A stretch of 64,000 nucleotides of DNA, from positions 12,655-76,654 of the forward strand of contig JBNLVK010000291.1 in the NCBI GenBank assembly GCA_050618055.1. The letters run 5' to 3'. Source of the DNA: Myxococcota bacterium (GTDB lineage Bacteria > Myxococcota_A > UBA9160 > SMWR01). Made by a program: the position numbers and the translations under genes. Positions 49,915 through 64,000 of the stretch are shown in pieces (positions within the stretch are counted from its first letter, which is position 1; each line of letters begins with the position of its first letter). The notes under the pieces were generated by a model that was given only the letters and a program-made list of their open reading frames with translations, was not told the origin of the DNA and searched no databases.

Positions 49915-51243
49915 ATGAAGCTCGTTCCGTTGCTCTCTTGTCTCCTGCTGCTCGCCGCCTGCGCGAGTCCGCCCGTCGCGCCCCCGACGGCGCCCCTCGA
50001 CGACCCGCTGCTCCAGAGCGCCGGGCTCCAGCGCGAGCGCGGCCGGCTGGAGCTGCCGCCGCTGGACCCGGGTCTGGAACGGGCGCGACTGGTCGCCCAC
50101 TTCGACCGGGTGCTCGAACGCCTCGAGGCGGGCCGGGCGCCCGCGCCCGATCTCGAGGAGCGCCGCGCCCTCCAGATCGAACGCCTGCGCCGCTACCGCG
50201 ACGCGGGTCGCTTCCCTCTGAACCGGGAGGGCCACGGCCTGACCCTGCCGATCTTCGTCGACGCCGAGGACACGGCCTGCGCCGTCGGCTGGCTGATGCG
50301 CGAGGACGGCTGGCGCGCGGAGGTCGAGGCCATCCGCCGCGCCGACAACCACGTCTACGTGGACGACGTCGAGGACGGTCCGCTGCTGGCCTGGGTCGCC
50401 ACGTCCGGGCTCACCCGCGAGGAGGCGGCGATCATCCAGCCCGGCTACTCGCCGCCTACCCTCGGATCGACCTTCGACGACCTGCTCGGCGGCGGGTCGC
50501 AGGTCGGCGCGGGACTCCTCTACCAGAACTTCACGCTCAGCCGCTCGACCCCCGGTGTCTCGGCGGAGGTGTGCGTGCTCTCGCCCGACTTCGCGAGCTG
50601 CCAGACACCGATCGATCCCGCCAGCGTCTCGCCGCTCGACGCGGTGGGCGTCGCGGCGGGCAATCTCACCATCACGACGCCCGACTACGAGGAGGACGCC
50701 ACCCTCTCGAACTGGCTCTACGTGGGCGGCGGGACCTCGGGCGACACGCTGGGGACCGACGGCGGCGGTACCGGCTACTCGATCATCGAGGTGGGCTACG
50801 ACGTCATGGTCACCGACCCGAACCTGGCGATCGGCGAGGTGCTGCTCCAGTCGTCCGGGTTCATCAACGAGAACGAGGCCGCGCCGCGCTCCGACGTCGG
50901 GTTCACCATCGCTACGGGCCTCGTCTGGGAGACCAGCCTGGTGGTCGGCTCGGTGTTCGAGAGCGGCGGCAGCGTGCTGGCGGATCTCACGGTCGGCGAC
51001 GACCCGGCGGACCTGACGACGCCGTTCATCCCCGGCGCGCCGCAACTGCTGTCGGGAAGCGAGCGCCAGACGATCGCACCGGTGTCGAGCCTGCACGTGA
51101 CCACCCGCGTCTTCGTCTTCGACGACGCCATCCTCCACGGCTTCTTCCACGAGTTCGACCTGGTGCCGATCCCGGAGCCGGGCACGGCGGCGCTGCTGGT
51201 GCTGGGGCTCGTGGCGCTGGGACTGCGCGGGCGGAAGCGCTAG
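49915..51243 (+). CDS. Lipoprotein-signal protein with C-terminal PEP-CTERM sorting domain
   Basis: MKLVPLLSCLLLLAAC lipobox; IPEPGTAALLVLGLVALGLRGRKR. Confidence 0.8.
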   Translation: MKLVPLLSCLLLLAACASPPVAPPTAPLDDPLLQSAGLQRERGRLELPPLDPGLERARLVAHFDRVLERLEAGRAPAPDLEERRALQIERLRRYRDAGRFPLNREGHGLTLPIFVDAEDTACAVGWLMREDGWRAEVEAIRRADNHVYVDDVEDGPLLAWVATSGLTREEAAIIQPGYSPPTLGSTFDDLLGGGSQVGAGLLYQNFTLSRSTPGVSAEVCVLSPDFASCQTPIDPASVSPLDAVGVAAGNLTITTPDYEEDATLSNWLYVGGGTSGDTLGTDGGGTGYSIIEVGYDVMVTDPNLAIGEVLLQSSGFINENEAAPRSDVGFTIATGLVWETSLVVGSVFESGGSVLADLTVGDDPADLTTPFIPGAPQLLSGSERQTIAPVSSLHVTTRVFVFDDAILHGFFHEFDLVPIPEPGTAALLVLGLVALGLRGRKR

Positions 51244-52445
51244 GGCGCCTCGCCCACGTAGCGCGCGCGCGGGCGGATCAGGCTGCCGGCTTCGTACTGC
51301 TCGATGGCGTGGGCGATCCAGCCGGCGGTGCGGGCGATCGTGACCAGGCAGAGCGCGGCACCCGGCGGAAGGCCCAGTGCGCGCCGCAGGGCCACCGTCG
51401 CGAAGTCGACGTTCGGCGCCCGCGCGATCAGCCGAAGGCACTCGCGCTCGACGGCGTCGGCGACCGCCAGGTCCGGGCTCCCGCCGTCCAGCCCGCGCAC
51501 CCGTGCGAGCAGCGCCCGCGCGCGCGGGTCGCCCTCGCGGTAGAGCGGGTGGCCGAAGCCGGGGATGCGCTCGCCGCGGCGGAGGCGCGCCTCCAGCACC
51601 GCGCGCGCCCGCTCCGGCCGTTCGATCTCGTCGAACAGCGCCTCCACCTGCTCGCTGGCGCGACCGTGCAGCGGTCCGCCCAGGGCCGACAGGCCGGCGA
51701 TCACCGCCGCGTAGGGTGTGGCGCCCGACGACGCGACGCAGCGCACGGTGAAGGTGCTGACGTTCAGCTCGTGGTCCGCCCACAGGATGAGCGCCGCCTC
51801 CAGGGGCTCGCGCACCGCAGGGCGGTCCGGCGCCCAGGCGCGCTGGAGCACGTCGGCGGCGGGGGCGTCGGACGGTGCGCCGCCGGTGCTCACGGCGGTC
51901 AGGATGCGCAGCAGCTTCGCGCCGACGCGGCGCACGCCCGGCGCGCTGCGGTCGTAGCCCGACGCGTCCTCGCCGGCCTTGGCCGCCAGCACCACCTGGA
52001 AGCGTTCGATGGCGGGCAGGTCGGCCAGCGCCGGCGTGGGCTTCGCGAAGGCGCGAGGCAGGGCCGGCACCACCGGGTCGATGCCGGTCGCGAGCGTGCC
52101 GCCCCACAGGAAGCCGGCCACCTGCTCGAAGCCCGCCTGACCGATGAAGCCCTCGGCCGGCAGCCCGCGGTAGTAGAGCTGGCCGTCGCGGATCAGCGTC
52201 AGGCCCGACTCGAGCAGCGGCGCGCCGAACGACAGCGCCTGGGACGCCGCCCGCTCCGGATCGCGCCGGCTCTGCTTGCGCCGCGCCAGCCGCTCCACGT
52301 CCTCGGCGTGGTAGAGCCGCGCGCGGGTGCCCCGCTGCCGCTCGCTGCGGATCAGCCCGCGCGAGACGTAGGCGTAGAGGGTGTCGCGGCGGACGCCGAG
52401 CCGGCGCGCCGCCTCGTCCGCCGAGAGCCGCCCGGGACCGCTCAC
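51240..52445 (-). CDS. Citrate synthase family protein with N-terminal excisionase/MerR-like HTH
   Basis: LSADEAARRLGVRRDTLYAYVSRG; ADHELN.ST, GPLHG, GFGHPLY, PNVDF, RPRARY. Confidence 0.88.
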   Translation of the reverse strand: MSGPGRLSADEAARRLGVRRDTLYAYVSRGLIRSERQRGTRARLYHAEDVERLARRKQSRRDPERAASQALSFGAPLLESGLTLIRDGQLYYRGLPAEGFIGQAGFEQVAGFLWGGTLATGIDPVVPALPRAFAKPTPALADLPAIERFQVVLAAKAGEDASGYDRSAPGVRRVGAKLLRILTAVSTGGAPSDAPAADVLQRAWAPDRPAVREPLEAALILWADHELNVSTFTVRCVASSGATPYAAVIAGLSALGGPLHGRASEQVEALFDEIERPERARAVLEARLRRGERIPGFGHPLYREGDPRARALLARVRGLDGGSPDLAVADAVERECLRLIARAPNVDFATVALRRALGLPPGAALCLVTIARTAGWIAHAIEQYEAGSLIRPRARYVGEAP

Positions 52446-52469
52446 GAGCCGTCTCCGCGCGCCCCTGGA

Positions 52470-52487
52470 CTTGATATATAAATCAAG
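52470..52487. promoter_or_regulatory. Palindrome CTTGAT-N6-ATCAAG between divergent citrate synthase genes
   Basis: CTTGATATATAAATCAAG, strongly AT-rich island, followed by further TTGA units. Confidence 0.65.
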
Positions 52488-52545
52488 ATTGACCGCATTG
52501 ATGGTCGAGTCTAGCCTCCCTTCGCGCGCCCCGCACGGAGGATGC

Positions 52546-53727
52546 ATGACGCAGATCGCCCGCGGACTGGCCGACATCGCCATCACCGAGACCCGCCTCT
52601 CCCGGGTCGACGGGGAGGCCGGCCGCCTGCTGATCGGGGGCTTCGCCGTGGAGGAGCTGGCGCCGAACGCCTGCTTCGAGGAGACGCTCTTCCTGCTCTG
52701 GAACGACCGGCTGCCGTCGCCGGCCGAGCTCTCCGCGCTGCGCGCCGGTCTGGCGGAGCGTCGCGCGCTGGCGCCGGCCACCCTGGCGCTGCTGCGGGCG
52801 GCGGCCGACGCCGGCACCGCGCCCATGGACGCGCTGCGCATGGGCGCGGCCACGCTCGGGCTCGCGGAGCCCGGCCTGCACCGCACCGAGCTCCAGGCCC
52901 GGCCCGCCGGCGAGGTCCGGCAGACGGCGCTGCGCCTGGTGGCGGCGCTGCCGGTGGTCGCGGCCGCCTACCACCGGCTGTGCCAGGGCCGCGAGCCGGT
53001 CGTGCCGGACCCGGCGCTCGACCACGCGGCCAGCTACCTCCACCTGCTGACCGGCGAGGTGCCGGCGCCGGGCCAGGCGCGCGCCCTCGCCACCTACCTG
53101 AACACCACCGCCGACCACGGCATGAACGCCTCCACCTTCACGGCGCGGGTCGTGGCCAGCACGCGCTCCTGCCTGTCGTCGGCGATCGTCGCGGCGCTGG
53201 GGGCGCTGAAGGGTCCGCTGCACGGCGGCGCCCCGGGTCCCGCCCTCGACATGGTCTTCGATCTCCAGCGCCGCGCCGACGCGACCGGGCGTTCGCTCGA
53301 GAGCGTGACCGAGCAGTGGGTGCGCGACCAGGTGGCCAAGGGCGAGCGCATCATGGGCTTCGGCCACCGCGTCTACCGCGTGCGCGATCCGCGGGCCGAC
53401 GTGCTGGGCGCCGCGGTGGAGCGGCTCTTCCCGGAGCGCGACGACGACGGTCTCTACCGCCGGGCGCGCACCGTCGAGCAGGGGGTGCTCGACGTGCTCG
53501 CCGAGCTGAAGCCGGACCGCGTGCTCCAGACCAACGTCGAGTTCTACACCGCGCTGCTGCTGCACGGCCTGGGGCTGCCGTCGCCGTTGTTCACGCCCAC
53601 CTTCGCCGTGGCGCGCGTGGCGGGCTGGACCGCCCACGTGCTCGAGCAGATCGACGAGGATCGGCTGATCCGGCCGCGGGTGGTGTACGCCGGCGCCGAA
53701 GGACGCCGCTGGGCCGGCGCCGCCTGA
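52546..53727 (+). CDS. Citrate synthase / 2-methylcitrate synthase
   Basis: GLADI, DHGMNASTF, LKGPLHGGA, GFGHRVY...DPRA, NVEFY, RLIRP. Confidence 0.9.
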   Translation: MTQIARGLADIAITETRLSRVDGEAGRLLIGGFAVEELAPNACFEETLFLLWNDRLPSPAELSALRAGLAERRALAPATLALLRAAADAGTAPMDALRMGAATLGLAEPGLHRTELQARPAGEVRQTALRLVAALPVVAAAYHRLCQGREPVVPDPALDHAASYLHLLTGEVPAPGQARALATYLNTTADHGMNASTFTARVVASTRSCLSSAIVAALGALKGPLHGGAPGPALDMVFDLQRRADATGRSLESVTEQWVRDQVAKGERIMGFGHRVYRVRDPRADVLGAAVERLFPERDDDGLYRRARTVEQGVLDVLAELKPDRVLQTNVEFYTALLLHGLGLPSPLFTPTFAVARVAGWTAHVLEQIDEDRLIRPRVVYAGAEGRRWAGAA

Positions 53728-53762: not shown

Positions 53763-54170
53763 GTGTCCATCCGCCACATCGACCACCTGGCGATCACGGT
53801 CGCCGACATCGAGACCACGATCGCCTTCTACCGCGACGTGCTGGACGCGGAGGTGCTGTACGAGGACCTGTGGCGCGCGGGGAAGATCCCGATCGTGCAG
53901 CTGCGGCTGGGGGCGTCGCGGCTCTCGGTGCACGCGGCCAGCGGTCCGGCCGAGCCCCACGCCCACGTGCCCATGCCCGGCTCCGGCGACTTCTGCTTCC
54001 GCTGGGACGGAACCGTCGCCGAGGCGGTGGCCCGGCTCGAGCGCCACGGCGTGCCGGTGATCGAAGGTCCCGTGCCGCGCCCGGCTGCCGACGCCACCCT
54101 CGGCCGGTCGGTCTACTTCCGCGACCCGGACCGCAACCTGCTCGAGCTGCTCACCACCGAGCCCGACTGA
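53763..54170 (+). CDS. VOC/glyoxalase family protein
   Basis: IDHL.ITV.D, PGSGDFCF, EGPVPR, SVYFRDPD.NLLE. Confidence 0.88.
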   Translation: MSIRHIDHLAITVADIETTIAFYRDVLDAEVLYEDLWRAGKIPIVQLRLGASRLSVHAASGPAEPHAHVPMPGSGDFCFRWDGTVAEAVARLERHGVPVIEGPVPRPAADATLGRSVYFRDPDRNLLELLTTEPD

Positions 54171-54212
54171 GCGGGTACACTGCGCCCCCGCCACCCACTG
54201 GAGGAGTCCCCC

Positions 54213-54863
54213 GTGAAGCTCTACGACGCCGTCGGACCCAACCCGCGCCTGGTGCGCATGTTCCTCGCCGAGAAGGGCGTCGAGCTGCCGACCGAGCAGG
54301 TCGACATCATGGCCGGCCAGAACCGCCAGGCCCCCTACACCGACGCCAACCCCTTCGGCCAGATGCCGGCCCTCGAGCTGGACGACGGACGCGTGATCGG
54401 CGAGACGACGGTGATCTGCGAGTACCTGGAGGAGAAGCACCCGACGCCGGTGCTCGTCGGCGCCACGCCCGAGGAGCGCGCCGAGACGCGCATGTGGACG
54501 CGCCGCGCCGTGCTGAACGTGATCGAGCCCATGTCCGCCGGCTTCCGCTTCGCCGAGGGCCTGTCGATGTTCCAGGGTCGCATGCGCTGCATGCCCGACG
54601 CCTCGGCCGACTTCAAGGCGGTGGCCCAGGACGGCCTGGCGCTCTTCGACGGCCTGATCGAGGGACGCGCCTGGATCGTGGGCGACCGCTTCACGCTGGC
54701 CGACATCGCGCTCTACACCCTGCTCGACTTCTTCGCGACCGTGGGCCAGCCCCTCGACCCGGAGCGGAAGAACGTGGGCGCCTGGTTCGAGCGCGTGGGC
54801 GCGCGGCCCAGCGCCGAGGCGAGCCTGCACCCGGTCGCCGCCGGCGGCGGCATGCGCGCCTAG
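54213..54863 (+). CDS. Glutathione S-transferase family protein
   Basis: PNPR.VRMFLAEKG, NPFGQMPALELDDG, ICEYLEE, FTLADI. Confidence 0.9.
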   Translation: MKLYDAVGPNPRLVRMFLAEKGVELPTEQVDIMAGQNRQAPYTDANPFGQMPALELDDGRVIGETTVICEYLEEKHPTPVLVGATPEERAETRMWTRRAVLNVIEPMSAGFRFAEGLSMFQGRMRCMPDASADFKAVAQDGLALFDGLIEGRAWIVGDRFTLADIALYTLLDFFATVGQPLDPERKNVGAWFERVGARPSAEASLHPVAAGGGMRA

Positions 54864-56179
54864 GAGAGGCTCTCCACCTCGATCGGCAGGCCGTCGACCG
54901 GCTTCGAGATCGGCGCCTGCTGCACCGGCATGACGTAGCCGTCGGGCACGCTCCAGCGGAAGCGCTGCACCAGCTGGTGGGCGACCAGCCGCACCTGGGC
55001 TTCGGCGAAGCGTCGGCCCAGGCACATGTGGGTGCCGCCGCCGAAGGGGATCCAGCTGTGGGTGTGGCGCTCGTGCTCGGCGCGCTCGGGCGCGAAGCGC
55101 TCCGGCTGGAAGCGCTCGGGCTCGCTCCACCACTCGGGCATGACGTGGGTGTGGATCGGTGACACCACCACCATGGTGCCCTGGCGGATGGTGTGGCCCT
55201 GCCACTCGAAGTCGCGGGTGGCGGTCCGCGGAATGACCGGCAGCGGCGGGTAGAGCCGCAGCACCTCCTGCATGGCCCAGGTGAGTGCGGGCAGGCGGTC
55301 GAGGTCGTCGAAGCCGGGGCAGGGGTCGCCCAGCGCCAGGCTCTCCTCGCGGATGCGCTCCTGCCACTCCGGGTGCCGCGCCAGCTCCCAGGTGAGCGAC
55401 GTCAGCGTGCTGGTGGTCGTGTCGTGGGCGGCCATCATCAGGAAGATCATGTGGTCGAGGATCTCCTGGTCCGAGAACACCTCGCCCGTCTCCGAGCGCG
55501 CGCGGCACAGCCGGCTGAACAGGTCGCCGGCCGGGTCGCCGCGCTTCTTCGGGATCATGTCTCCCAGCAGCGACAGCAGCGTGCGACGGCCGTCGAGACC
55601 GCGCTTGTAGCGTCCGGCGAAGGGCAGGCGCAGCCCGGGCATGGAGGCCGCGACCATCGCCTCGAAGGCGCCGTTCATGCGACGCGCCGCGGGCCCCAGG
55701 TCGACGCCCACGAAGATGGACGCCGCCATGTCGAGGGTCAGCGCCTTGTAGGCGTCGAAGGCGCGCAGGCGTCCGCCGCCGGGGCGCGGCGCGAAGCGGT
55801 CGAGGCCCGCCGCGATTGCCGGCCCCATGCGCTCGGTGTACTCGCGCAGCACGGGCCGCTTGAAGGTCTCGTGCATGATCTTGCGGTGGTGGCGGTGCTC
55901 GTCGCCGTCCCGCAGCAGCAGGCCGTTGGGGAAGATGCCGCCCATGATGAGCGTCCAGGGCTCCCGCGCCGAGAACAGGCGCTCGCGGTCGAGCAGCACG
56001 AAGCGGTTGGCGTCGGGTCCGAACAGGGTGACGTTGTAGAAGCGCCCGCCGCCCATGCCGACCACCGGACCCAGCTCGCGGTGGAGCCGGGTGTGGAGCC
56101 CGCGCATCTCGTAGCGACGCGCGCCGCGGCCGGTGATCTGACCGAGCACCAGGCGGGCCGGCGCCTTCGGGATCGCCAT
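54860..56179 (-). CDS. Cytochrome P450 (CYP136-like)
   Basis: HMIFLMMAAHDTT, EVLR, PERF, FGGGTHMCLG. Confidence 0.92.
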   Translation of the reverse strand: MAIPKAPARLVLGQITGRGARRYEMRGLHTRLHRELGPVVGMGGGRFYNVTLFGPDANRFVLLDRERLFSAREPWTLIMGGIFPNGLLLRDGDEHRHHRKIMHETFKRPVLREYTERMGPAIAAGLDRFAPRPGGGRLRAFDAYKALTLDMAASIFVGVDLGPAARRMNGAFEAMVAASMPGLRLPFAGRYKRGLDGRRTLLSLLGDMIPKKRGDPAGDLFSRLCRARSETGEVFSDQEILDHMIFLMMAAHDTTTSTLTSLTWELARHPEWQERIREESLALGDPCPGFDDLDRLPALTWAMQEVLRLYPPLPVIPRTATRDFEWQGHTIRQGTMVVVSPIHTHVMPEWWSEPERFQPERFAPERAEHERHTHSWIPFGGGTHMCLGRRFAEAQVRLVAHQLVQRFRWSVPDGYVMPVQQAPISKPVDGLPIEVESLS

Positions 56180-58359
56180 CAGCCGCCGTGCTCCACGAAG
56201 ATGGGCGACGACCAGGCCCGCTCGCGCACCGGCGCCAGGCAGTCGTCGTCGCGGGGCGTGGCGAAGCCGCCGGAGCAGGGCTCCGCCGTCCAGGCGCCGC
56301 TGGCGTCGCGGCGGACGCGGGCGTTGGCGCCGTTGATGGCGGGGGTCTCGGCCTGGAGCGCTCGCACGTAGTAGATCGTATCGCGCCCCCGGGCCGCGAA
56401 CTCCGCGTCCTCGAAACGCACGCGGCAGCCGCCGCCGTCGCCGGGGCAGGGCAGGCGCAGCCACGGATCCTCGATCAGCGCGGCCACGTCCTCGCCGGGG
56501 TGGCTGCGCGGCCGGATGCGCACCACCTCGATCGCCTCGATGGGCACGCGCTCGTCGCCCGGGTGATGGCACTCGCCCAGGCACAGGGCGTCGATGCGTT
56601 CGGCACTCATGGCCCGGAGCGTATCGTCCGGACAGCCCGGCTTCTGAACGAAGCTTCCCGCGGCGCGCACCTCGAAGGCCGGGCTGCCGGTGCGCGTGGC
56701 CTCGCCTCCCATGGGGGTGGGGACCTCGCCGCCCAGCAGGTCGAACCAGAGCAGGATGCGCGGACCGCTGGTGGCGTAGACCTCGCGCCGCTCGAGCGCC
56801 GCGAACACGCCCTCGCGGTCGCGCCGCTCGCTGTGCACGGCCACCAGCCCGCCGGTGTAGAGGAAGCTGGCGGTGCGCTCGGTGTCGAGCAGCGACCGGA
56901 AGCCCGTGGCCGCGGGCGGCGACGGCTGGGCGCGCGCCGGATCCTCCGGCTCGCCGGCCACGAAGCCGCGCAGCAGGTCGGCGGTGCGCTGCGAAGCGAA
57001 GCCGCGCGCGTCGGTCATGCCCTTGCGCCCCACCTGCTTGTAGCCGCTGCCGGCGCGCGCGGTGTGGTTGTCGCTCGAGCCGATGAAGCCCCAGCGGAAG
57101 TCGCCGCTGGCCAGGGCGTACTGGGCGCTCATGTGGGGGCGGTCGGCCAGGGCCGGCTTGAAGGCGCCGCGGGTCTGGTCGCAGTCGAGCCAGTCGGCCG
57201 CCGTGGTGTCGGGCAGCACCCAGTGCGGACGCCGACCCGCCTCGAGCGCCAGCCGCATGGCCTCGTCCACGCGGGCCTGGCACAGGGCGGCGGGCAGGTC
57301 GCCGCAGCGCTCACGCACGATCTCGCCGGCGCGCCAGCAGCAGGGCAGGTAGTCGTCGGTGGGCTCGGCGCACACGCCCGCCAGCGCGGCGCGCTCGGCG
57401 GCGGCGGCCGCCGGCTCGAAGCGCTCGCCGCTGCCGTGCCCCGAGAACACCTCGACCAGGCGCTGCACGTCCGGCGCGCTGCGCTCGGGTGAGGCCTGCA
57501 CGTCGAGCCGCGCGCCCGGCGGCGCGTGGATTCCCCAGCCGAGGCCGTGGGGCACCACCAGCGCGCGACCGCCCCACTGGGCCAGCTTCTCGAACAGCAC
57601 CTCGGGCGTGGGCGCGGTCTCCTGGCACTCGCGCGGCAGCTCGCGGGTGTCGACGCCGCGCTCGCAGAAGGGCACGTTCGCCAGCCGCCGGATCCACCAC
57701 AGGAAGTCGGCGTAGGGTCGGGCGCCGAGGGTGAGCGCCGCCTCGGCCACCCGCGCCAGTCCCAGGTAGCGGGCCCGGTCCATCACGTCGTCGGGCAGGG
57801 CCGAGATGGGGCGGGGCGGAACCTCCTCGTCGGCGAGCCCGGGGACGATCACGTTCTTGTGGCCGAAGTGGGCGTCGGGCGTCATGCCCATCTGCGTCCA
57901 CTCGTAGCCGACGAAGGCCATCAGGTCCGGGCTCGCCGGGTCTCCGGCCCGCTCGTTGCACTGGCGAACGCTCTCGATCGAGCGCCGCCAGCGCTCGGGC
58001 GTCAGGCCCTCGGCGTGGTCGTTCAGCGAGAAGAAGTCGAGGTTCGCGCAGTGGCGGGCGAAGTCGCAGGCGTCGGCCGGCGGGTGGGCGCCGGCGCCGC
58101 CGAAGACGGGCAGCGCGTACAGGAAGGCGTCGATCGAGTAGGTGGTGTGGACGTGCAGGTCGCCGAACAGGATCGACTTCGACGCGGGCACCGCCAGCGA
58201 TCGCCGCACCTCGCGCTGGGCCGCCTGCTTGGCGGCCACGACCTCCGGCCCGTGGCCCGCCCCCTGCACGCGCCCCGCCGGCGGATCGCCGCCGCTGCAC
58301 GCCAGCGCCAGCAGGCACCCCGCGAGCGCCGCGCGCGCCCGGCTCGATCGATCAGACAC
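56179..58359 (-). CDS. DUF3604 family PHP-like metallo-hydrolase, probable lipoprotein
   Basis: LALAC lipobox; FGDLHVHTTYS.DA, DHAE, GYEWT, GSSDNH, YATSGPRI, ERAWSSPI. Confidence 0.82.
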   Translation of the reverse strand: MSDRSSRARAALAGCLLALACSGGDPPAGRVQGAGHGPEVVAAKQAAQREVRRSLAVPASKSILFGDLHVHTTYSIDAFLYALPVFGGAGAHPPADACDFARHCANLDFFSLNDHAEGLTPERWRRSIESVRQCNERAGDPASPDLMAFVGYEWTQMGMTPDAHFGHKNVIVPGLADEEVPPRPISALPDDVMDRARYLGLARVAEAALTLGARPYADFLWWIRRLANVPFCERGVDTRELPRECQETAPTPEVLFEKLAQWGGRALVVPHGLGWGIHAPPGARLDVQASPERSAPDVQRLVEVFSGHGSGERFEPAAAAAERAALAGVCAEPTDDYLPCCWRAGEIVRERCGDLPAALCQARVDEAMRLALEAGRRPHWVLPDTTAADWLDCDQTRGAFKPALADRPHMSAQYALASGDFRWGFIGSSDNHTARAGSGYKQVGRKGMTDARGFASQRTADLLRGFVAGEPEDPARAQPSPPAATGFRSLLDTERTASFLYTGGLVAVHSERRDREGVFAALERREVYATSGPRILLWFDLLGGEVPTPMGGEATRTGSPAFEVRAAGSFVQKPGCPDDTLRAMSAERIDALCLGECHHPGDERVPIEAIEVVRIRPRSHPGEDVAALIEDPWLRLPCPGDGGGCRVRFEDAEFAARGRDTIYYVRALQAETPAINGANARVRRDASGAWTAEPCSGGFATPRDDDCLAPVRERAWSSPIFVEHGG

Positions 58360-58780
58360 CCAGCTCCTCGTCGTCGTAGAGGCGCCGAACGTACAGCGAG
58401 TCGAAGTACTCGTGCACCTCGCGGATCCGGCCGTCGCGCAGCTCGTAGAGCACGAAGTAGTCGGAGGCGTAGGGCTCGCCGCTCCTTCGGGTGGTGCCGC
58501 GGTGGCGCATCTCCACGGCCACCCGGTTGCCCTCGGCCAGCGCCGACAGCACCTCGATGTCGTACTCGCGCGTGCCCGTCTCGTAGAGCTTCTCGTCGAC
58601 CGCGAAGTAGACGTCGAAGATGGCGTCGCGGCCCTCGTGGACGCCGGGTCCGCCCAGGCTCGGCGGGTACTTCCAGCGCGCGTCCGGGTGGAAGGCCGCG
58701 CGCGCCGCCTCGCGGTCGCCGCGCGAGAGCGCCTCCAGGAAGGCCAGCACGATCTGCTTGTTGCCGGCGGCGCTCGTCAT
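58352..58780 (-). CDS. NTF2/SnoaL-like family protein
   Basis: NKQIV.AFL.AL..GD, AEGNRV..E, ELRDG.I.E.HEYFD. Confidence 0.82.
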   Translation of the reverse strand: MTSAAGNKQIVLAFLEALSRGDREAARAAFHPDARWKYPPSLGGPGVHEGRDAIFDVYFAVDEKLYETGTREYDIEVLSALAEGNRVAVEMRHRGTTRRSGEPYASDYFVLYELRDGRIREVHEYFDSLYVRRLYDDEELGV

Positions 58781-59805
58781 CAGTCGACGAAGGCCCGGAT
58801 GCGCTGGTGCACCAGCGACTGGCGGAAGGGGGTGTGGGCCTCGAAGGGGACCCAGCCGGCCGAGTAGCCGATCTGGTCCGACAGGGCGCGCGCCGCCAGG
58901 TAGACGTCGAAGCTGTCGTCCCAGACGAAGAAGCGCAGGTAGACGCGTTGCGGCGAGTGCTGGAGCAGCTCGGAGCGATAGCGCGAGTTGCCGACGCGCA
59001 GCTCCTTCGTCGTCTCGCCCGCGTCGCGCCGCCGCCAGGCCAGCTGACCGGTCAGCGTCCCGCCCACGTCGAGCACGTGCCAGCGCAGGTTCGCGTCGCC
59101 CACGTCGTTGCTCTCGAACCAGCGGAGCACGCGGCTGCGGTCGATCGCGCTGCGCTGGATGCTCTCCGGCGACGAGCCGCCGGTGGCCTGGCGGATGGCG
59201 CCCCACAGGCGGTCCACCAGCTCCTGGCCGTCGACGCGCAGGATGCGGCCGTGGCGCACGAAGAAGGCGATCTCGCGGGCCCCGACCGGTGCCGGCCGCG
59301 GATCGGGCAGGCGCGCGTCGCGGGCCGTGGCGGCGACCGGCCGGGCGAGCTTCTGCTCGAGGTCGCTGCGCTCGCGGGTCTCGGCGGCGAGCGCGCGCTC
59401 CAGACGCTGCAGCGTCTCCCGCGCCGCGGCCCGCCGCCGCTCGATCTCGGCCGCGCCGCGCGGTGCGCCGCGACCCGCCTCGAGCTCGCGATCCAGGGTC
59501 GCCACGCTGGCGCGCAGCGCCGACAGCTCGGCACGGCGCTCGCGGCGCAGGGCCTCGCGCTCCGCCGCGTCGGGCAGCAGCGGCGCCAGGGCGCCGCGCA
59601 GCTCGCGGGCCTCCTCCTCGGCGGCGGCCATGGCCTCGCGCGAAAGCTCGGGCCGTCCCACCAGCTCGTCCTTCAGGCGCTCCATGGCGTCGCCCACGCT
59701 GATCTGCATCACCGCCAGCAGCACGACCAGGATGCCGGTCACGTTCGCCATGGTGTCGAGCAGCGAATCCAGGTTCTGACCGTCGTTGCGGCGGCGCCGG
59801 CTCAT
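58780..59805 (-). CDS. Single-TM coiled-coil protein, ExbD/TolR-like partner retaining the TM Asp
   Basis: MSRRRR..NLDSLLDTMANVTGILVVLL, coiled coil, C-terminal alpha/beta domain. Confidence 0.65.
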   Translation of the reverse strand: MSRRRRNDGQNLDSLLDTMANVTGILVVLLAVMQISVGDAMERLKDELVGRPELSREAMAAAEEEARELRGALAPLLPDAAEREALRRERRAELSALRASVATLDRELEAGRGAPRGAAEIERRRAAARETLQRLERALAAETRERSDLEQKLARPVAATARDARLPDPRPAPVGAREIAFFVRHGRILRVDGQELVDRLWGAIRQATGGSSPESIQRSAIDRSRVLRWFESNDVGDANLRWHVLDVGGTLTGQLAWRRRDAGETTKELRVGNSRYRSELLQHSPQRVYLRFFVWDDSFDVYLAARALSDQIGYSAGWVPFEAHTPFRQSLVHQRIRAFVD

Positions 59806-60593
59806 CCGCGCCCCCTGCGGCGCGAAAGCGGCGAGAAGTCGAGCGGGCCCTCGCCCACGATCGGCATCTCGCCGGAGCGCACCCGGTGGCGGTCGGCCAC
59901 CGGGCGCGCGCGCCGGTAGCTCTCGACCCCGCCTTCGCGGATCAGGAAGATGACACTGGCGTTCGAGCGGAACAGCACCTCGCGCAGGAAGCGCGCGTAC
60001 TCGGGGCTGGCGCGCACCAGGTGGGTGGGAATGGGCCGCGCCTCGCGCGTCTCGCCCACGTAGAGCACGATGCCCTCGGAGCGACACTCGACGAAGTGGG
60101 GATCCAGGCCGAGCCCGCTGCCCGAGGGCTGGATGCGGATGGGCGCCTCGGCCTGGAGGGCGCGGCGCCGGGCCAGCTCCTCGCGCTTCTCGCCGTTGGT
60201 CCGTTGCAGCGGTGCCAGCTCGCGCTCGAGGGCCGCCACCCGCGCCTCGTCGTCGGCCAGCGCCTCGCGATCGGGCACGTTGCGCGCCAGCGCGCCGGCC
60301 AGGGCGTCGCGCTCGCGGGCCAGCGCGTCGCGCCGCTCCCGCTCCGCGGCCAGGCTGCGGGCCAGGTCGTCCAGCTCGGTCGACAGGCCCTGGAGCTCGG
60401 CCAGCCGCCGGCGCCCCTCCACGATCTCGGCCTCCAGACGCTCGTAGCTCTCCAGGTCGATGCCGCCGGACGCCACCTGCGAGGTGGCGCTGGCCGTGAT
60501 CACCAGGATCAGCGTGCCGATCACGCAGGCCAGGATCGACAGGAACGGGAACAGCGACACGCTGGGGCGCGTGCGGCGTCGCGGCCTCGCCAC
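59802..60593 (-). CDS. Single-TM coiled-coil protein, ExbD/TolR-like partner lacking the TM Asp
   Basis: MARPRRR..SLFPFLSILACVIGTLILVI, coiled coil, C-terminal alpha/beta domain. Confidence 0.65.
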   Translation of the reverse strand: MARPRRRTRPSVSLFPFLSILACVIGTLILVITASATSQVASGGIDLESYERLEAEIVEGRRRLAELQGLSTELDDLARSLAAERERRDALARERDALAGALARNVPDREALADDEARVAALERELAPLQRTNGEKREELARRRALQAEAPIRIQPSGSGLGLDPHFVECRSEGIVLYVGETREARPIPTHLVRASPEYARFLREVLFRSNASVIFLIREGGVESYRRARPVADRHRVRSGEMPIVGEGPLDFSPLSRRRGRG

Positions 60594-60603
60594 CCCCGGC
60601 CCC

Positions 60604-62355
60604 TCAGTCCTTCCGGAACAGGTCGCGCAGCGGCCGCCGCCGCTCCTGGTCGCGGACGTTGCGCAGGGCCCGGTCGTGCAGCGTCTCGAGCTTCGCGAGC
60701 TGACGCTCCCAGGGCTCGGCCATGCGCGACGCCACGCGCTCGGTCTGCTCGACGAGTCGCGTGAGCTGCTCGGCCGCCTCGCCCGCCACGCCGGCGCGCG
60801 CGGCCTCGGCCTCGCGCCGCAGGTCGGCCAGGGCGGCCACCAGGTCGTCGACGGCGCGCAGGCGCGCGTCGGCGGCGTCGTTCATGCGGGCGATCTGCTG
60901 GTCGATGCGTCCGAGCGTCTCGGCCAGGCCGTCGGACGCGCCCTTCAGGCTGCGCGTCTGGGCCTCGGTGCCCTCCTGCACCCGGCGCTGGAGCGAGTCG
61001 GCGCTGCGCGCCACCTCCTCCATGCGATCGACCAGCCGCGCGATCTCGCGCGCGCCCTCGTCGCGCATCTCGGCCACCTCGCCGCGCACGCGTCCCAGCG
61101 TGTGGGCGAGCTGCTCGCCGGCCAGCGCCAGCTGGCTGCGCTGGGCGCTCTGCTGCTCGGCGGCGGCCGACTGCTCCTCGACCAGCCGCCGGTGCAGGCG
61201 CTCGACGCCGGCGAGCTGCTCGTCGATGCGGTGGGCGCCCTCCTCCTGGAGCGTGCGCGCCTCGGCGGACATGGCGGTCAGGTGGTTGCGGAAGTCGCGC
61301 AGCAGCCCGCGCTGGGTCTCGAGCAGCTCCTCGCTGGCCTCGCGCTGGGCGGTGTGCGCCCAGTCGGACAGTCGCTCCTGCTGGCGGTCCTGCCGCAGGC
61401 GCAGCTGCTCGTCGATCTTCTCCCAGCCCGACACCACCTGGGCCGTCAGCGTCTCGCCGATCTGCGACAGCCGGTCCAGCCACTGGCGCATCGCCTCGTG
61501 GTGAGGCGCCAGCTCGGCGGCCACGGCCTCGCGGATCCAGCGCTCCTCCGGCGGGCCGTCGGCGTGGGCGTCCTCCAGGCGGCGCACCAGGTGCTCGTCG
61601 CAGTAGTCCTCGACGTCGGCCAGGAAGCCCTCTTCCCACTTCTGGAGCGAGCTGGCCGGGAACATGATCAGGATGCTCATGACCAGCGCCAGCAGCGTGG
61701 TGTCGAAGGCCACCGACAGGCCGCCGGTCACCGAGCCGATCGAGTTCTTCATCACCTCCAGGTCGACGGCGCTGCCCACCGAGTCGGAGAAGCCGCCCAC
61801 GGCGGCGCCGATGCCCAGCACCGTGCCGATGAAGCCCAGGATCGGCACCGCCCAGATGAAGACGCGGACCATCGTGTAGCTCGAGTCGACGCTGTCGGCG
61901 TCGGTCTGGGCCTGGCTCTCCAGCGACGACACCACCTCGCGGGCGTCGCGCCGGGCCTGGAAGTGCTGGAGCGCGCGCTCGATGCGCTGCACCAGCAGGC
62001 CGCGGCTCGCCCGCTCCGGCAGCTCGTGGAGGTGGGCGACGAAGCGGGCGGCGTTGTCGGGAGTCACGCGCTCGCCGATGTGGGCGGGCAGCAGGTCGAA
62101 GGCCAGCGCCTCGCGCTGGCGCGAGAAGCGCCGGAACTTCTCGACCAGCAGCACGCCGGCCCAGAAGGAGAGGTAGGCGATGCCGTAGGGCACCCAGCCG
62201 CGCTCGGCGAACAGCTCGCCGATGGGCGATCCGAGCAGCGGCAGCACCGCCAGGTAGAAGACGACGGTCACGACGGCGGCCACGGCCCCGGTCACGCCCA
62301 GGCCGGGGTCGGTGGGGCCGCGGGCTCGTCTGCTCTCGGGACGGTCGCGGGTCAA
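60604..62355 (-). CDS. MotA/TolQ/ExbB proton channel family protein with long C-terminal helical tail
   Basis: Four hydrophobic segments; PILGFIGTVLG and GLSVAFDTT motifs; ~350-aa E/Q/R/L/A-rich tail. Confidence 0.82.
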   Translation of the reverse strand: MTRDRPESRRARGPTDPGLGVTGAVAAVVTVVFYLAVLPLLGSPIGELFAERGWVPYGIAYLSFWAGVLLVEKFRRFSRQREALAFDLLPAHIGERVTPDNAARFVAHLHELPERASRGLLVQRIERALQHFQARRDAREVVSSLESQAQTDADSVDSSYTMVRVFIWAVPILGFIGTVLGIGAAVGGFSDSVGSAVDLEVMKNSIGSVTGGLSVAFDTTLLALVMSILIMFPASSLQKWEEGFLADVEDYCDEHLVRRLEDAHADGPPEERWIREAVAAELAPHHEAMRQWLDRLSQIGETLTAQVVSGWEKIDEQLRLRQDRQQERLSDWAHTAQREASEELLETQRGLLRDFRNHLTAMSAEARTLQEEGAHRIDEQLAGVERLHRRLVEEQSAAAEQQSAQRSQLALAGEQLAHTLGRVRGEVAEMRDEGAREIARLVDRMEEVARSADSLQRRVQEGTEAQTRSLKGASDGLAETLGRIDQQIARMNDAADARLRAVDDLVAALADLRREAEAARAGVAGEAAEQLTRLVEQTERVASRMAEPWERQLAKLETLHDRALRNVRDQERRRPLRDLFRKD

Positions 62356-62462
62356 CGGAGGCCTCTCGAATCGGCGAAGCGCCGATTATCCCACAGCGGG
62401 GCCCCGGTCGCTTCGCGGGTATACTCCCTCGACGCCGCGCCCGGCCCCCGAGGAGACCCCCC

Positions 62463-63380
62463 ATGTCCAAGCTTCGAATCGGTCTGATGCAGGGAACCAG
62501 CGGACCCACCGCCAGCCTCGACGAGATCGTGGCGACCGCGAAGCAGGCCGAGTCCCTGGGCTTCTCGACCCTCTGGTTCCCCAACATCTTCTCCTGGGAC
62601 GCCATCGCGCTGGCGGCGATCGTCGGCCGCGAGACCGAGCGGATCGAGCTGGGCACCGCCGTCGTGCCCACCTATCCCCGGCACCCCATGGCCATCGCCC
62701 AGACCGCCCTCACCGCCAGCGCCGCGTCCGGCGGGCGCTTCACGCTGGGCATCGGGCTCTCGCACAAGATCGTCATCGAGGACATGTTCGGCCTCTCCTA
62801 CGCGAAGCCGGCCCGTCACATGCGCGAGTACCTGGAGGTGCTGACGCCGCTGCTGCGGGGCGAGCCCGCCAAGTTCGAGGGCGAGCTGTACCGGGTGCAG
62901 GGAGGCATCCAGGTGCCGGGGGCCTCCCAGGTCCCGCTGGTGGTGGCGGCGCTGGGTCCGGTCATGCTCGACCACACCGCGAACTACGCCGACGGCACGA
63001 TCACCTGGATGACCGGTCCGAAGACGCTGGCCGAGCACATCGTGCCGACGCTCACCGCCGCCGCCGGGAAGCGCGGCAAGGGCGCGCCGCGGGTGGTGGC
63101 CGGCCTGCCCATCGCGCTGACGAACGACGTGGACGCGGCCCGCGAGAACATGGGCAAGGCCTTCGCCATGTACGGGACGCTGCCCTCCTACCGCGCCATG
63201 CTAGACCGCGAGGGCGTGGAGGGTCCGGCCGGCGTGGCCATGGTGGGCGACGAGAAGTCGCTGCGCGCCCAGATCGACCGGCTGGCCGACGCCGGCGTCA
63301 CCGACTTCGACGCGGCCATCACGCCCGTCGACGAAGGGGCCGCCGAGCGCACCCTCGAGTTCCTGGCCAGCCTGAACTGA
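62463..63380 (+). CDS. LLM class (probable F420-dependent) oxidoreductase
   Basis: IELGTAVVPTYPRHP, GRFTLGIGLSH, AALGPVML, DG..TW, LPSYRAMLDREG. Confidence 0.85.
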   Translation: MSKLRIGLMQGTSGPTASLDEIVATAKQAESLGFSTLWFPNIFSWDAIALAAIVGRETERIELGTAVVPTYPRHPMAIAQTALTASAASGGRFTLGIGLSHKIVIEDMFGLSYAKPARHMREYLEVLTPLLRGEPAKFEGELYRVQGGIQVPGASQVPLVVAALGPVMLDHTANYADGTITWMTGPKTLAEHIVPTLTAAAGKRGKGAPRVVAGLPIALTNDVDAARENMGKAFAMYGTLPSYRAMLDREGVEGPAGVAMVGDEKSLRAQIDRLADAGVTDFDAAITPVDEGAAERTLEFLASLN

Positions 63381-63388
63381 CCGGCGTC

Positions 63389-64000
63389 GTGGAGCTTCTG
63401 CGGGTCACCTACCGTCTCGACGGCGTCGCCGCGTCCGATGCCGAGGCGCGCGCCGAGGCGATCGCGCGCGAGCAGACCGTCGAGGTCCCGCGCGCGGTGG
63501 TCGATCGCGAGCCGGGCATCGCCGAGAACGTGGTGGGCCGGGTCGAGTCGGTCTCGGGCGAGGAGGGCGGAAGCCGGGTGCGCATCGGCTACCCGGTGGC
63601 CACCACCGCCCACGATCCGGCGCAGCTCTTGAACGTGGTCTTCGGCATGACCTCGCTCCAGGCCGACGTCCGCTGCGTCGACATCGAGCTGCCGCCCTCG
63701 CTGCGCGTCGCCCTGCGCGGTCCGCGCTTCGGCATCGCCGGCCTGCGCGAGGCGATGGGCGCCGCCGACCGGCCGCTCACCGCCACCGCCGTCAAGCCCA
63801 TGGGCCACGATCCGAAGGCGCTGGCCGACCTGATGACGACGTTCGCCCAGGCCGGCGTCGACCTGGTGAAGGACGACCAGGGCCTGGCCGACCACGCCTT
63901 CTGTCCCTTCGAGGACCGGGTGCGCGCGTGCCTCGAGGCGGTGCGGCGCGTGGCCGACACGACCGGCCACGAGACGCTCTACGCCCCCAACCTGATCGGC
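63389..64000 (+). CDS. RuBisCO-like protein (form IV), N-terminal part, 3' truncated by window
   Basis: Not in ORF track (no stop). EQTVE, QLLNVVFGMTS, GPRFGIAGLR, TAVKPMG, GVDLVKDDQGLAD, PFEDRV, LYAPN. Confidence 0.88.
   Translation, partial: MELLRVTYRLDGVAASDAEARAEAIAREQTVEVPRAVVDREPGIAENVVGRVESVSGEEGGSRVRIGYPVATTAHDPAQLLNVVFGMTSLQADVRCVDIELPPSLRVALRGPRFGIAGLREAMGAADRPLTATAVKPMGHDPKALADLMTTFAQAGVDLVKDDQGLADHAFCPFEDRVRACLEAVRRVADTTGHETLYAPNLIG

Follow-up and report, generated by a model that had tools for sequence, protein, structure and literature searches.

A conserved gene triplet of uncultured Myxococcota as a candidate ion-driven motor with two unequal axle partners

The window analyzed here, a stretch of 64,000 nucleotides (nt) of contig JBNLVK010000291.1 from a Myxococcota bacterium (assembly GCA_050618055.1), carries three open reading frames (ORFs) on its minus strand: A (60604–62355), a channel subunit of the MotA/TolQ/ExbB family, and B1 (59802–60593) and B2 (58780–59805), two partners paralogous to each other. 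A and B1 are separated by a gap of 10 nt, and B1 and B2 overlap by ATGA. The triplet is a real, conserved and uncharacterized variant of the 5:2 motor kind, for which current models (MotAB, ExbBD, TolQR, ZorAB) have two equivalent aspartates out of phase. In the triplet, the position of the motor aspartate is occupied by Ser in B1 and by Asp in B2. We consider it reasonably probable that A and a B1:B2 heterodimer constitute an ion-driven rotary motor, whose periplasm-spanning shaft would act directly on a target in the envelope without TonB/TolA. A preliminary description made from the letters of the window had pointed out the tight linkage and a series of motifs, all of which are found in the sequence, and had proposed an asymmetric motor: a conserved A with two paralogous B proteins and a predicted B1:B2 heterodimer agree with this proposal, although the asymmetry does not define the family.

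Conservation of the triplet and its motor position

An alignment search with B2 gave 199 loci in GTDB-type genomes, 80 of which were analyzed. The order A-B1-B2 on one strand is kept in 67 of the 80; four loci break off at a contig end, and in nine B2 stands by itself. With this share of ordered loci, chance is by far too weak an explanation for the linkage, and the conservation across neighborhoods, which the preliminary description had named as a check, is borne out. In the genomes with B2 alone, A and B1 stand together elsewhere in 5/5 searched. Judging from record titles, carriers include Myxococcota, Planctomycetota, Verrucomicrobiota, and Lentisphaerota; among cultured planctomycetes, loci of Kolteria, Gimesia, Novipirellula, and Roseimaritima were recovered. 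Of 301 genomes searched in the window's phylum, 17 have B1 (16 in the window's order and one outside it; 14/18 in family f10), and so have 9 of 251 genomes of the phylum to which a Verrucomicrobiales locus belongs. Of 41 relatives, five have B2, and these are also the genomes that have a close A of the full-length type. The A profile gives four high-scoring genomes among 151 of Planctomycetota (17 with any match), and an exhaustive search gives 354 B1-like 50% clusters at E 1e-30. In Gimesia-type genomes (L024, L025, L030, L032, L036, L042, L048, L073) the operon is split: B2 lies apart from A-B1 and is followed by an FHA-like coiled-coil protein with a weak Yop-YscD_cpl match. A planctomycete genome (G482) has two B1-B2 copies, at C1:1866234–1867544 and 5048513–5049866.

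The register of the motor position is settled by alignment: INVTPFVD of a canonical ExbD-family protein of the same genome lines up with VSLFPFLS of B1 and with QNLDSLLD of B2, which places B1 Ser19 (60537–60539, minus strand; SLFPFLS vs. NVTPFVD) and B2 Asp17 at the motor-Asp site. B2 has another aspartate, D13, one helical turn earlier (D13 to D17, DSLLD, 59755–59769, minus strand), and both are present in 103 of 104 B2 homologues, the remaining one being truncated at the N-terminus. Thus, B2 keeps the transmembrane (TM) Asp as had been proposed, but has two invariant Asp instead of one.

For B1, Ser is found in 65/65 locus pairs, a set chosen by the B2 pattern LLDTM[AT]NV[VT], which misses partners of Asp-bearing B1 and fixes D17 by construction. 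Two unbiased protein searches gave 257 B1 relatives: by pattern, 241 have Ser, four Asp, one Asn, and one Ala, and the 10 unmatched contain one more Asp and two more Ser, the rest being truncated. An invariant Ser is ruled out by these five Asp cases (5/257). Furthermore, a scan for the Asp form of B1 (LFPFLD) found 47 metagenome loci; a metagenome scan with P0279 alone found nothing. L155 and L163 are examples of natural Asp-B1 members. Where A is present in the Asp-B1 loci, it is fully orthologous and in almost every case has an N-terminal zinc ribbon; both Asp are kept in every readable B2 N-terminus (18 by pattern, 14 by eye). The A proteins of these loci fall inside the family in a tree, and a single Asp clade is not rejected (approximately unbiased test, p-AU 0.875, from a quick tree). 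Several independent Ser/Asp switches in B1 are unsupported, a single Asp clade being compatible with the tree. As far as sequences tell, a second axle Asp is optional in the triplet family and not forbidden, because a minority of true B1 orthologues have Asp at position 19. The earlier statements that Ser replaces the essential Asp in B1, and that the conservation of this asymmetry should be surveyed, are therefore upheld as to the register of S19 and the Ser majority, but not as a family-defining trait: Asp occurs in a minority of orthologues, and two-Asp members stand inside the family.

The wider survey covered 40 regions around weaker A matches and nine more loci. It contains sister triplets with Asp in both partners (LFAFQD/LELLLD); a “giant” triplet family of planctomycetes (L107–L115), often in the same genome as the triplet family, with Ala at the Asp site of the first partner (594–739 amino acids (aa), LFPFLA) and DSFLD in the second (340–430 aa); stalkless Ser forms (L121, L122); single-partner forms; and TPH-vWA pairs. 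In the A tree, the wider non-canonical group is apart from six canonical ExbB/TolQ rows (100/99), and the triplet family forms a clade with L121 (98/96). The position of the nearest sister is poorly supported (93/43), and the tree comes with a warning on long branches.

These distributions bear on whether the complex is a continuous rotor. A gated ion channel, a sensor of stretch or envelope width, or a scaffold would find one Asp enough and would have no alternating power stroke. The Ser majority in B1 (241/257 by pattern) and the recurrence of Asp-less first partners in the giant and stalkless sister families would suit such a device, and current models, as PMC9389320 presents them, rely on two alternating sites. 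It would leave unexplained, however, that both ring threonines of A and D17 of B2 are invariant, and the two-Asp members inside the family, with orthologous A and B2, suggest one shared mechanism. Indeed, the recurrence of Asp at position 19 of B1 orthologues and the Asp in both helices of sister triplets and TPH-vWA pairs support the motor. We regard a non-rotating device as improbable.

The channel subunit and the partners

A (583 aa, TTG start) matches PF01618 above the gathering cut-off (E 2.4e-10, 40.7 bits vs. 22.9), in line with its initial assignment to the MotA/ExbB type on the basis of TolQ/ExbB motifs. Hydropathy gives three helices, at residues 15–33 (marginal), 165–183, and 213–231, and the pore helices correspond to ~165–183 and ~213–231; a further TM helix near 53–72 is suggested by the alignment and because the zinc ribbon would otherwise not be on the cytoplasmic side. 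Thr178 (61822–61824, minus strand) is in the register of the GT..G threonine of canonical ExbB/TolQ, and T220, in D218-T219-T220 (AFDTT, 61696–61704, minus strand), is in the register of the second ring threonine (AxxAT). T178 and T220 are invariant in 39/39 alignment rows and aligned with the threonines found in the canonical ExbB/TolQ copies of the same genome. AFDTT, of which D218 is a subfamily signature, is found in 65/65 complete A proteins. The conserved Glu in the third TM helix of the canonical copies (GIAEAL) is absent from A, which has an Asp three residues further on. Compensation for the lost B1 Asp by D218 was considered and rejected: AFDTT/AFETT is also found with two-Asp partners, L119 combines AFNTT with a Ser-bearing B1, and D218 does not track the loss of the B1 Asp.

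Both ends of A vary. A CxxC..CxxC zinc ribbon is found at the N-terminus of 61/65 A relatives; its kinship to the GltJ-type domain is weak (PF13717, E 0.009, one protein). Zinc ribbons are described as regulatory switches in GltJ (PMC11135422). The C-terminal helical tail (residues ~261–583; 60607–61575, minus strand) is probably cytoplasmic and gives weak, low-complexity helical matches only. After AFDTT, 363 residues follow in the window A and 73–397 across the family. The window A and its three nearest relatives (L015–L017) are without the zinc ribbon and have the longest tails (363–397 aa vs. 73–305), so that the “long-tailed” channel of the preliminary description is found here but is specific to the window's subclade. 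Among PADLOC models, A matches ZorA2 at E 2e-8, while TolQ, ExbB2, and ZorA models match weakly or far under cut-off. The only motor chain recovered from PDB by the A profile is 8vvn_C (E 0.017), which we take to be ZorA.

These features of A belong to the main rival explanation, drawn by analogy with MotAB and ZorAB: the B1:B2 heads would hold the cell wall as an anchored axle, and the A ring would turn with its tail or zinc ribbon and act on cytoplasmic partners. Appendages at both putatively cytoplasmic ends of A (zinc ribbon 61/65; tails 73–397 aa) and the ZorA matches in PADLOC and PDB would fit such a stator, and so would a stalk length held at 126–158 aa. The rotating tail of ZorA recruits effectors according to PMC11946911, and TolR/ExbD heads are proposed in PMC11761067 to bind peptidoglycan. 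However, B1 and B2 give no match to an OmpA-type wall-binding domain, no conserved cytoplasmic partner lies nearby in the 80 loci, and a five-fold variation of the tail together with the loss of the zinc ribbon in the window clade is odd for a fixed output. We give this arrangement a minority chance, larger than that of any other rival.

B1 (263 aa) consists of an Arg-rich N-terminus, a TM helix (14–36), a stalk (~47–149), and a head (~155–251). B2 (341 aa) has a TM helix with D13, D17, T18, and N21, a stalk (~56–154), and an alpha/beta head (~164–330). This is the layout that had been read from the sequence at first: an Arg-rich N-terminus, one TM segment, a long coiled-coil stalk, and a C-terminal alpha/beta domain in each. 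Each predicted structure has one TM helix and two long helices besides an alpha/beta head, with a predicted local distance difference test score (pLDDT) of 90.5 for B1 and 83 for B2. The two are paralogues over their full length (HHalign 98.2%, E 3.6e-14; heads alone 91%, E 9.5e-7), and the B2 head (~170 aa) is homologous to the B1 head (~100 aa), with an insertion.

Neither protein matches ExbD, MotB, or OmpA families in Pfam and NCBIfam, where, as in PADLOC, only generic coiled coils are hit. PF02472 matches neither at E 0.1, while six other genes of the same genome score above its cut-off. A PDB sequence search with the B1 profile gave coiled coils only, and the ESM Atlas gave only unnamed clusters with scores <0.9. 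On the other hand, the top four structural matches of the predicted B1 head are TolR (5by4; Z 7.9, root-mean-square deviation 2.9, 86 residues aligned) and three ExbD (Z 6.1–6.3). Kinship of the B heads to ExbD is probable and not proven, because B2 is without a clear match and a profile comparison with ExbD is negative; the structure search which the preliminary description had suggested for the C-terminal domains gives a match, a modest one, for B1 only.

B1 and B2 are predicted to pair as a heterodimer through the long coiled coil. The complex model scores 0.66, the best of three controls 0.01. The mark for this score is reached by 116/157 solved complexes and 2/215 mismatches, and is a rough one here, where own alignments were used. 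At least 83% of the contacts are common to the runs, with a partner pLDDT of at least 79. The modeling covered the B1:B2 pair alone. In the predicted interface, residues 59–153 of B2 face 50–147 of B1 in a parallel coiled coil, and the heads are in contact with their conserved motifs together. Furthermore, the stalk lengths of B1 and B2, kept within 126–158 aa in the 65 pairs, co-vary (Spearman 0.78, 65 pairs; independent contrasts r 0.46, p 1e-4; 24 contrasts of the 33 that are non-zero have the same sign); this test excluded two loci whose genes are broken or cut. A coiled coil rises by 1.5 Å per residue, and a stalk of ~100 residues therefore corresponds to a shaft of ~15 nm. By the lipobox rule, B1 was also considered as a lipoprotein (ILAC23) and rejected: the Cys is present in 52/65 only, the hydrophobic run extends beyond it, and TPH helices have a Cys at the same register.

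The proposed mechanism and known motors

The likelihood of the proposed motor differs from part to part. A complex of A, B1, and B2 likely forms and is probably ion-driven; that its output is directed to the heads, which would drive a peptidoglycan or outer-membrane target, is tentative. In the proposed scheme, A would supply a ring with the two threonines T178 and T220 seen in its sequence, presumably a pentamer as in the family. B1 and B2 would be bound as a parallel coiled coil with touching heads, as predicted, and their N-terminal helices may fill the pore in the manner of ExbD/TolR and TPH helices. D17 of B2 would be the ion-binding site, perhaps helped by D13 and N21, and B1 would contribute a neutral Ser. 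In the turnstile model described in PMC9389320, one proton is used per 36° with two equivalent sites. A single site would take up an ion on the periplasmic side, rotate, release it into the cytoplasm, and rotate further, and one ion would pass per 72° instead of per 36°, unless D13 or D218 is a second site. The coiled-coil shaft of ~15 nm would carry a TolR/ExbD-like head across the periplasm, and the heads may reach peptidoglycan or an outer-membrane complex; A may have an anchor or regulator in its zinc ribbon or its tail. Of the whole scheme, this output is the weakest step. A direct-drive output is favored by analogy with the TPH-vWA proposal in PMC12204202 and with GldM.

The boldest form of this scheme, a naturally occurring 5:1:1 rotary motor that has only one canonical Asp, 72° per ion, and a heterodimeric 15-nm shaft, is possible rather than probable. 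If true, it would break the 10-fold periodicity of 5:2 motors, which PMC9389320 calls “almost certain to be a universal feature.” One-Asp and two-Asp “gearings” in the same family would then be a ready-made natural comparison: with Ser/Asp variation in otherwise orthologous parts, the need for two sites, the step size, and the number of ions per turn become testable on natural proteins. The triplet is also a sign of an energy-consuming machine of the envelope, as yet unstudied, that would be shared by Planctomycetota, Verrucomicrobiota, Lentisphaerota, and uncultured Myxococcota.

Several observations weigh against the proposed motor or its parts. The TolR/ExbD match of the B1 head is modest (Foldseek E 0.02), unrelated uS11 chains reaching Z 6.0; fold searches with the whole B2 model gave nothing clear, the matches listed being filled by the coiled coil; and HHalign of the B heads against nine ExbD sequences gave only 1.1% and 0.1%, the TM segments being likewise non-significant. 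The complex test is also often passed by proteins closely related to a true partner. The distribution is patchy, with B2 in 4 of 24 genomes of the same family, and the stalkless L121 form means that a long shaft is not needed everywhere. ORF clustering over the 80 loci found no fourth gene conserved across phyla that would point to the output, only clade-level synteny and abundant generic families.

Among known systems, heterodimeric axles are already predicted for AglQS and for TPH-vWA pairs, both with two Asp. PMC12204202 proposes that heterologous TPH-vWA pairs rotate directly in the pentamer of a TolQ-like protein, a proposal that needs no TonB/TolA. Triplet A is in the same non-canonical channel clade (30–34% identity), two different B genes follow A, the stalk is helical, and TM helices are in register (SFLDVISCGFG in TPH vs. 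PFLSILACVIG in B1). The differences are the heads (TolR/ExbD-like in B1, no vWA match in Pfam), Asp in both TPH helices vs. Ser in B1, and AFDTT of A vs. AFNST; A also has additional N-terminal sequence and a long tail or a zinc ribbon.

AglRQS, the gliding motor of Myxococcus xanthus, for which a heterodimeric AglR5:AglQ:AglS insertion is predicted in PMC11761067, had been cited at the outset as a precedent for two B-type subunits. It does combine one TolQ-like gene with two TolR-like genes, as the triplet in 67/80 loci, but the TPH-vWA pairs are the closer published precedent. AglQ and AglS both have the TM Asp according to PMC9389320, in contrast to S19 of B1; the passages on AglRQS drawn on here mention no long coiled-coil stalk; the triplet is without a conserved Glt-type neighbor; and B1 lies outside the window's order in a single genome among the 301 of the phylum. 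This comparison was made on the published descriptions.

GldLM, the motor of type IX secretion and gliding, is comparable by analogy only. According to PMC9389320, GldM forms a shaft of 18 nm; as proposed for B1:B2, a long periplasmic dimer stands in a pentamer, and the ring acidic residues E49/E59 of GldL (PMC8986121) recall D218 of A. GldM is a homodimer, however, and D218 is not tied to the loss of the B1 Asp. Among the homologues of MotAB surveyed in PMC12505986, unknown “generic ion transporters” with large periplasmic domains are noted. No description of the triplet family or of a one-Asp axle was found in the open-access literature, a search to which the supplements of PMC12204202 and PMC12505986, where members might be listed, did not belong.

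ExbBD and TolQR share with the triplet the PF01618 channel, both threonines, the Asp register, and probably, in B1, the fold of the predicted head. The triplet differs in the absence of PF02472 matches, a predicted heterodimer vs. a homodimer, a stalk of ~100 residues, one missing Asp, and no TonB/TolA neighbor. It might still be a divergent ExbBD/TolQR that energizes a TonB/TolA-like or vWA transducer encoded elsewhere. The head of B1 is in keeping with this, and PVC bacteria have a tolQ, a heterologous tolR pair, and a vWA transducer according to PMC12204202. The source genome has its own ExbBD-TonB sets and five TonB_C matches, but three of the five adjoin canonical ExbBD sets (C102, C229, C278). 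Moreover, no transducer gene is found among the conserved neighbors of the 80 loci, the stalk would place the heads far from the point where TonB and ExbD meet, and A is separated from the six canonical ExbB/TolQ rows in the tree. A transducer of this kind appears rather improbable, slightly more so than the non-rotating device. No tonB/tolA, tolB, or pal was found among the conserved neighbors either, unlinked partners being outside this search. The same genome has a small, very divergent MotA/ExbB-like gene at G000:C116:9780–9950, with an open frame of 193 aa.

Gene neighborhood and related loci

As had been noted at first, no TonB/TolA, flagellar, or Zorya effector genes adjoin the triplet, and none was conserved in the neighbor analysis. 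The B2 stop overlaps the start of a gene for a SnoaL-like protein (TGATG; 58352–58780, minus strand), followed by a DUF3604 gene (56179–58359, minus strand) and P450 genes. The SnoaL-like gene was not recovered as a conserved neighbor in locus clustering; DUF3604-like genes are also found downstream of the triplet in L015 and L016, which looks like local synteny only. The flank on the other strand has an F420-dependent oxidoreductase of the LLM type (TIGR03564, above cut-off), whose end is overlapped by a gene for a RuBisCO-like protein (63377–64000, plus strand) of form IV type; its best model is methylthiopentyl-phosphate enolase, under cut-off. No sigma-70 promoter-like site was found in 54000–62600.

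The neighborhood bears on a Zorya-like anti-phage sensor. ZorA5B2 of Zorya and the triplet have in common a long helical C-terminal tail of A, weak ZorA profile matches, and the AFxT motif. The ZorA-like tail in the window subclade, the patchy distribution, and a helicase after B2 in 10 loci of one marine clade could be taken as signs of a defense system. This helicase is HelD-like and below cut-off, however, and there are two B genes, neither with a ZorB- or OmpA-like match in Pfam, NCBIfam, or PADLOC. The window neighbors are metabolic, the guanine-cytosine content at the triplet (0.74) is the same as in the rest of the window and contig, and its surroundings do not resemble a defense island. 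From 29 loci, 115 flanking proteins were compared with PADLOC at 1e-6, their ORFs being chosen by a codon heuristic and trimmed to 700 aa; eight give a match: ankyrin, kinase, UvrD, desulfurase, and oxidoreductase, all generic. ZorC/D/E were found neither among these 115, with the best five matches per protein considered, nor among the window neighbors. Because the flanking matches are few and all generic domains, a defense role is unlikely, and a Zorya-like sensor is the least probable of the explanations weighed, with hardly any weight left. Use as a flagellar stator is also unlikely and was rejected, because FliG (FliG_C) was not found in 5/5 triplet-bearing genomes (84–99% complete); B1 and B2 give no MotB/OmpA match, a further difference from MotAB/PomAB. 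MglB-like roadblock genes are present in 5/5 triplet genomes, a comparison that covers triplet carriers only and is hence uninformative.

The HelD-like helicase after B2 belongs to a set of marine-clade loci (L018, L020, L022, L023, L026, L027, L050, L055, L060, L068, L135, L136). In several of these loci, A is preceded by a divergent PEGA-domain gene, and a DUF3450-ExbB-ExbB operon lies 5–8 kb upstream. In L121:4907–8943 (G259), from a large-genome member of the phylum, the stalkless triplet, whose Ser-bearing B1 has 155 aa and whose B2 has 212 aa, lies directly behind a co-oriented PQQ/BamB-type beta-propeller gene. Beta-propellers also flank the triplet in L057, L088, and Gimesia A-B1 loci, but such genes are common throughout these phyla. 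In other families of the phylum (L123, L127–L130, L132–L134), channels of the AFDTT type are followed by a single Asp-bearing coiled-coil partner (TSLADILT). Motors of the TPH-vWA type are found in related Myxococcota (L006–L009, L140), with an extra gene between A and the B pair whose product is actin/Hsp70-like by eye with an FHA-like end. Elsewhere in the window, a divergent pair at 51240–52886 (minus strand) and 52381–53727 (plus strand) resembles citrate-synthase-family proteins by eye, one of the two presumably having an N-terminal helix-turn-helix-like stretch.

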